From Antedon mediterranea (lineage: Eukaryota; Animalia; Echinodermata): a DNA stretch of 64,000 nucleotides. Below, piece after piece: positions 9,108 through 9,149 of this stretch. The stretch lies in the NCBI RefSeq assembly GCF_964355755.1, contig NC_092671.1, positions 29,952,104 through 30,016,103 of the forward strand, in the 5' to 3' direction. A program made the translations under genes and the position numbers. The notes beneath the pieces were generated by a model. The model was not told where the DNA came from. It did no database searches and worked only from the letters and a program-made list of their open reading frames with translations. Every line of letters begins with the position of its first letter. Positions within the stretch are counted from its first letter, which is position 1.

Positions 9108-9149
<42 letters not shown>
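9108..9149 (+). repeat. 42-bp exact duplicate of 28S 7701-7742 (helix 69 / R2 target site) in the spacer, unit 1
   Basis: AGCGCGGGTAAACGGCGGGAGTAACTATGACTCTCTTAAGGT is identical at both positions. Confidence 0.98.

Follow-up and report, generated by a model that had tools for sequence, protein, structure and literature searches.

A copy of the R2 retrotransposon target in the ribosomal DNA spacer of Antedon mediterranea, probably a homogenised scar of R2 activity

The target of R2 retrotransposons in the 28S rRNA gene is described in detail for Bombyx R2. According to Wilkinson et al. 2023, it comprises an upstream motif (RUM, -34 to -22) and a nick motif (RASIN, TTNANNT, -6 to +1), and both motifs suffice for nicking (PMC10499050). 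The T at +1 is essential, changes at +2 to +5 are tolerated and so are other single changes near the nick, save at -6, -5 and -3; replacing +6 to +37 costs neither nicking nor priming (PMC10499050). Off-target sites of the zebra-finch element R2Tg match 4-5 nt of 3' homology (PMC12222951), and A-clade R2 protein stays on the upstream DNA following both nicks (PMC12180492). R2 elements often duplicate upstream 28S sequence at their 5' junctions, 21-26 bp in arthropods and 13-28 nt across species, and their ribozymes mostly cut at -9 to -36 in the upstream 28S (PMC3774820). Melanogaster-type R1 copies outside rDNA likewise have 7-28 bp of upstream 28S attached, and its end is fixed (PMC2718515). 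Stage and Eickbush 2009 described 22 bp of the R1 target copied into the intergenic spacer (IGS) of Drosophila ananassae, with one R1A and seven R1B elements in units of this kind (PMC2718515).

Flies depend on R2 breaks to maintain their rDNA (PMC10266012), and in a population model hosts transcribe the rDNA region having the fewest insertions (PMC3542110). A 2026 review counts 14 echinoderm R2s and sees no framework for R2 persistence in rDNA across animals (PMC13580325). R2 is also listed for a sea lily (PMC10946416, table). In this study, we analyse a 42-nt block in the rDNA spacer of Antedon mediterranea which repeats the upstream side of the R2 target. Our best reading, which we hold to be rather probable, is that the block is a scar made by R2, homogenised by concerted evolution and probably still cuttable.

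The window, i.e. the whole stretch of DNA that was analysed (64,000 nt of contig NC_092671.1), is a tandem eukaryotic rDNA array with six complete 28S genes. Each of these is 3684 nt long with 0-2 base differences (Rfam placement and alignment), hence none holds an insertion and the R2 site is uninserted in all six. The 18S gene at 2630-4434 looks echinoderm-like, perhaps crinoid. Behind the 28S gene follow a 9-bp array, a 51-nt flank, the block, 15 nt and a T run. The features, in window positions, are:

5175..8858, + strand, 28S rRNA gene of unit 1 (Rfam)
7701..7742, + strand, source block in the 28S gene of unit 1, bottom-strand R2 nick between 7741 and 7742
8976..9056, + strand, 9-bp tandem array, 9 copies (10 in unit 5)
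9057..9107, + strand, pyrimidine-rich left flank, 51 nt, no significant rRNA match, identical in six units
9108..9149, + strand, spacer copy of 28S -41 to +1, unit 1 (exact search, blastn)
9115..9127, + strand, RUM (-34 to -22) in the unit-1 copy (definition of PMC10499050)
9143..9149, + strand, RASIN (-6 to +1) in the unit-1 copy, predicted nick between 9148 and 9149
9124..9142, + strand, hairpin of 6 bp with a 7-nt loop, predicted fold alike in 28S and spacer
9150..9164, + strand, 15-nt linker
9165..9192, + strand, T28 run (27-28 T across the six units)
19664..19705, + strand, spacer copy, unit 2 (exact search, flank comparison)
29156..29197, + strand, spacer copy, unit 3 (exact search, flank comparison)
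39699..39740, + strand, spacer copy, unit 4 (exact search, flank comparison)
49164..49205, + strand, spacer copy, unit 5 (exact search, flank comparison)
59412..59453, + strand, spacer copy, unit 6 (exact search, flank comparison)

Within the window the 42-mer is matched exactly at 12 places, each on the + strand; none of 100 shuffles gave a match. Six lie in the 28S genes, beginning at 7701, 18257, 27749, 38292, 47748 and 58005, and six in the spacer, where the copy starts 249 nt past the 28S end with 42/42 identity in every complete unit. In R2 numbering, position -1 corresponds to 7741 in the 28S gene and 9148 in the spacer, and +1 to 7742 and 9149, so that the copy covers 28S -41 to +1; either end base might be a chance match (1 in 4), leaving a core of -40 to -1. 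Beyond these limits the flanks do not extend the match to 28S: the upstream extension scores 0 and the downstream one 4, which 13% of 701 control segments attain. A continuation beyond +1 by way of a one-base slip was rejected on the same ground, 13% of controls doing likewise. An earlier sequence-only reading of this DNA had described an exact, same-orientation 42-mer about 250 bp behind the 28S gene, with flanks unrelated to 28S and spanning -41 to +1 of the R2 nick, and all of this is borne out. Its wording that every rDNA unit carries the copy holds for the six complete units of the window and may be too wide for the species, whose other contigs include divergent spacer variants, described below.

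When the spacer and 5'ETS of unit 1 are compared with 18S-ITS-28S (blastn, word size 7), the copy is the sole convincing rRNA-derived block (E 1.65e-18); the runners-up are GC-repeat matches with E 0.02 or worse. Two further candidates were dismissed: a 15/17 antisense match between the left flank and 28S 8368-8384 is taken as chance (E 3.4), and an older decayed copy at 8960-8990 is equalled in score by 25 of 148 control windows. The more distant spacer, 9391-12720, is made of subrepeats of about 300 bp, each a core of 174-177 nt plus 5-mer arrays, and the spacer-plus-ETS lengths (3227-4324 nt) follow the variable number of subrepeats. Nine of the cores in unit 1 resemble duplicated upstream promoter elements that lack the TATA-G start motif near 12735-12750.

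Concerning recognition by R2, the upstream motif is present as in 28S, being included in the 42/42 identity, and the nick motif TTNANNT is present with T at +1 and at its native distance from RUM. The two motif positions had been named in the sequence-only reading and agree with the published ones (PMC10499050). By its sequence the spacer copy conforms to the definition of an R2 target, and the two motifs at native spacing make it a predicted substrate for binding and nicking, at least by a Bombyx-like R2. Within the window a relaxed RUM+RASIN pattern matches just the 12 copies. It also has one match each in the metagenome loci L006 and L020, and this pattern alone is thus not rare. The strict consensus of the Bombyx screen matches neither the 28S nor the spacer copy, because the 28S itself departs from that consensus. 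Compared with the canonical target (PMC10499050), the copy shares both motifs, 28S-identical and at native spacing, but here downstream 28S is replaced from +2 onward. In view of the 3' homology at R2Tg off-targets (PMC12222951), this departure suggests that priming at the spacer copy may be weaker than nicking.

No R2 element accompanies the block. Behind it there is no HDV-like ribozyme: all 45 Rfam matches are weak and below gathering score, with no ribozyme or R2 family among them, and a custom ribozyme descriptor, used as such and with no positive control, gives 0 matches on 9060-9900. The search for R2 RT/RLE reading frames that the sequence-only reading had proposed was made on the window and yielded none; the only frames of at least 250 aa are six 302-aa frames antisense to 28S. 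By blastn the unit-1 spacer contains no downstream target half, i.e. no 28S sequence beyond the nick. There is no sense poly(A) after the block, and the T run stands in its place. Insertions are absent from the six spacer copies of the window, as from the six 28S sites. The 28S head would measure 40-41 nt, outside the 9-36 nt range reported for R2 ribozymes. The block is therefore not itself a member of the R2 element family.

A link between the block and R2 is supported. For a single site, the right end of the block would fall at the nick by chance at 3 of 6679 positions, and by our estimate the chance is roughly 1% when both ends and about ten known rDNA element sites are allowed for. The linker is informative as well. 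Its positions 9151-9156 repeat 9100-9105 in inverted form and 9156-9162 repeat 9144-9150 directly, so that 12 of its 15 nt correspond to local sequence, direct and inverted. Coverage this high occurs in 198 of 20000 shuffled sequences, at 7 of 851 positions in the spacer and at 49 of 5339 in the genes, i.e. p is about 0.01 in three nulls, in a test that is post hoc and was designed once the pattern was noticed. Direct and inverted repeats of nearby sequence in inserted bases are the signature of SD-MMEJ (PMC2943611), and the linker looks like a patchwork left by end joining. The likeness to these polymerase-theta insertions lies in the direct and inverted local repeats among the inserted bases (PMC2943611).

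We envisage the following course. The R2 nick would have set the right end of the block, the break occurring either in 28S before transfer or in the spacer afterwards. The block might descend from an R2 transcript or junction as its 28S head, the body having since gone. Alternatively, a longer 28S piece residing in the spacer might have been cut, its downstream half being lost and its upstream half shielded by R2 protein. Error-prone end joining would then have sealed the event, with the 15-nt linker filled by re-priming on local sequence. The variant would have arisen in one rDNA unit and, during the past few million years, reached the others through ordinary homogenisation, for which selection would not be needed.

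This origin is comparable to R2 5' junction duplications, which likewise consist of upstream 28S ending at the insertion site and are made by R2; those stand in tandem at the 28S site, are mostly 13-28 nt long and have the ribozyme next to them (PMC3774820). In contrast, the present block lies 1.4 kb away, measures 40-42 nt and lacks an R2 body. The sequence-only reading had named a homogenised R2 scar as one of its models. As the best fit this model stands, with a patchwork junction and the known habit of R elements to copy upstream 28S in its favour, but the head is too long for the reported ribozyme range and no R2 remnant follows it. Two further points weigh against it. The essential T at +1 is kept, a 1-in-4 coincidence if the block is a scar, and a cuttable site should be lost through repair from site-free units, so its spread would need R2 to have been quiet.

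The length of the head and the lack of an R2 frame in the window would suit a duplication of 28S in which R2 had no part, for instance a replication template switch at the hairpin or the repair of a break that another nuclease or transposon made close by, with the end falling at the nick by chance. [quoted passage not shown] However, these are tandem repeats of the adjacent 28S end and not of a distant internal block, and the endpoint coincidence of 3 in 6679 would have to be accepted. The TTAA-type sites of Pokey and I-PpoI, which we take to lie 2-6 nt from the end of the block, count against such a duplication too. We give it little credence.

The exactness of the copy is a separate matter from its origin. 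The sequence-only reading had argued that an exact copy in fast-evolving spacer implies youth, conversion or selection. These options stand and identity to 28S does call for one of them, while present data favour none of the three; the identity among the six units, on the other hand, is no sign of selection, given that the neighbouring spacer is equally uniform. All six units agree in the 51 nt before and the 15 nt after the block and vary hardly at all over the initial 400 nt of spacer, a uniformity explained by homogenisation. Substitution at an assumed 2e-9 to 1e-8 per site per year would leave a neutral 42-mer untouched for 8.3 to 1.7 Myr with a probability of one half, and the exact identity to 28S fits a neutral origin a few million years old. 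Relative to the tenth subrepeat core of unit 1, the one next to the promoter, the other nine have diverged at 6-16 of 174 sites, from which it follows that the block is younger than most subrepeats or has been maintained. By hand calculation the probability of 0/42 changes is 0.04 at a divergence of 13/174 and 0.23 at 6/174.

Maintenance would be expected if the copy, whatever its origin, were kept by selection as a harmless R2 site, either as a decoy or safe landing pad or as a place for spacer breaks that serve rDNA copy-number recovery. The block would be suited to this, being by its sequence a complete minimal substrate with the T at +1 and 42/42 identity. R2Tg that has target DNA bound beforehand is barred from a second one (PMC12222951), rDNA expansion in Drosophila is driven by R2 breaks (PMC10266012), and eight R1 elements have been described in D. 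ananassae units with the spacer copy (PMC2718515). In the window, by contrast, none of the six spacer copies has received an insertion, though neither has any of the six 28S sites, and a single copy per unit would at most halve the hits on 28S. The R2Tg off-targets with their 4-5 nt of 3' homology (PMC12222951) speak against an efficient landing site that departs from 28S at +2, and neutral persistence is enough for the identity.

The search for the 42-mer in other IGS sequences, also proposed beforehand, reached distant organisms only. A clade-specific pattern of the 28S end found 0 metagenome contigs. A general pattern gave 24 metagenome loci. Half of them, 12, were accepted as eukaryote 28S ends; the other 12 were left out (11 with no 28S match, plus L018 with a 24-nt motif match only). 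The block is absent from all 12 eukaryote loci, each offering 195-1464 nt of spacer from distant organisms. Hence the feature is not universal in eukaryote spacers; coming from such distant organisms, the result weighs little against a selected site. Overall, the decoy model, which the sequence-only reading had put forward, is neither supported nor excluded, and retention by selection in one form or another appears unlikely to us.

The position of the block close to the 28S end invites a comparison with host signals, namely a Myb-type Pol I terminator or fork-barrier site or a hairpin for 3'-end processing. It stands 15 nt ahead of the T28 run, with which the 3' external transcribed spacer possibly ends. 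An 8-nt motif in the left part of the block recurs in the first 110 nt of the spacer, at 8869 (one change) and 8962. With one variable position allowed, the motif occurs at 8869, 8962 and 9112, all within 260 nt of the spacer start, and elsewhere in the unit once, in the 28S source block. It presumably resembles the yeast Reb1 site; the recurrence was noticed post hoc and is matched by 3 of 148 control windows. In the predicted fold, the flanks would close a stem around the hairpin at 9124..9142, which we take to be helix 69. Yet the same 42 bases sit inside the 28S gene, where a sequence-specific terminator would halt transcription, and a terminator role is unlikely for this reason. Known terminators have the T tract upstream of the protein site and here the T run is downstream, which also counts against a host role, and such a role leaves the end at the R2 nick unexplained. 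We regard host signals of this sort as very unlikely to account for the block.

An assembly artefact is the least credible of the explanations, with hardly any weight in our judgement. The block junctions are read from the assembly; of the sampled words, the best sequencing runs contain 0.92. Against an artefact, the junctions are identical in six units that are individually resolved, with spacer lengths of 3227-4324 nt and unit-specific SNPs; contigs of two samples extend through the left flank as far as 9104, and among the rows listed there is no loose end at 9064-9104. In all, 20 public runs contain the region or part of it, and four of them (X1, X9, X5 and X14) were compared over 8700-9104. 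In X1, which may be the source sample, contigs span all 29 bins and reach 9104 in the spacer. X9, a further sample of this organism taken in a separate study, fills 25 bins, those of 9064-9104 among them, and shows two differences in the spacer; it is guessed to be RNA, and its cover up to 9104 is not proof of transcription. X5 (share 0.75) and X14 (0.42) come from other organisms and match the 9-bp tandem array only, so that their shares are silent on conservation.

The same organism also holds divergent variants of the 3' spacer, with loose ends at 8884 (in both samples, at least 255 nt), 8900, 8906 and 8964; the last continues with a single 9-mer copy and then other sequence. A>G changes at 8885 and 8922 are the minor form in X1, with 13% and 9% of the depth, and come close to fixation in X9. 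One X1 contig of 987 nt and depth 274 carries a diverged 75-nt piece of the 28S 3' end (window 8722-8796) followed by a short 5-mer repeat, and is possibly a dispersed 28S-derived repeat.

Regarding the literature, a check for 28S-derived blocks in the IGS had been advised, and it brought up the R1 target copy of D. ananassae (PMC2718515) but no R2 case. Among the matches listed, no later work on that R1 copy came to light. Both there and here the 28S target of an R element is duplicated in the IGS. The D. ananassae copy concerns R1, measures 22 bp and derives from a 28S site about 60 bp downstream of the R2 site (PMC2718515), whereas the present one concerns R2, comprises 42 bp of the upstream half plus +1, is found in six of six units and holds no insertion. 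Among the literature matches listed, with subscription papers and supplements lying outside the scope, we found no description of an R2-target copy in a spacer. No such copy appears in the available portions of PMC10946416, PMC5035012, PMC13188248, PMC13580325, PMC10257491 and PMC2048585. A spacer copy of an R-element target is thus already in print for R1, and the R2 variant, judged from the literature covered, appears new.

Even as a neutral scar, the reading we prefer, the block would record that R2 was once active here. With an identical R2 upstream site in the gene and in the spacer, each unit of the array amounts to a natural experiment. Counts of insertions and break scars at both sites could show whether the spacer is a sink for R2, what weight the downstream 28S has in vivo and whether the host gains. 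An active R2 would be predicted to be able to land in the spacer copy with the 28S unbroken. The 28S bases from -9 to -36, of which R2 ribozymes make use, are part of the block, and an element landed here might consequently be expressed from an intact unit. If such insertions were expressed, the site would be no less a second niche for R2 than a trap. A wider proposition, to which we assign a low probability, is that the rDNA spacers of animals have time and again acquired and retained an exact R2 target, open to cutting, just behind the 28S gene as a host-encoded safe harbour for the resident retrotransposon. If true, R2 could land there or make copy-number-restoring breaks without destroying a 28S gene.
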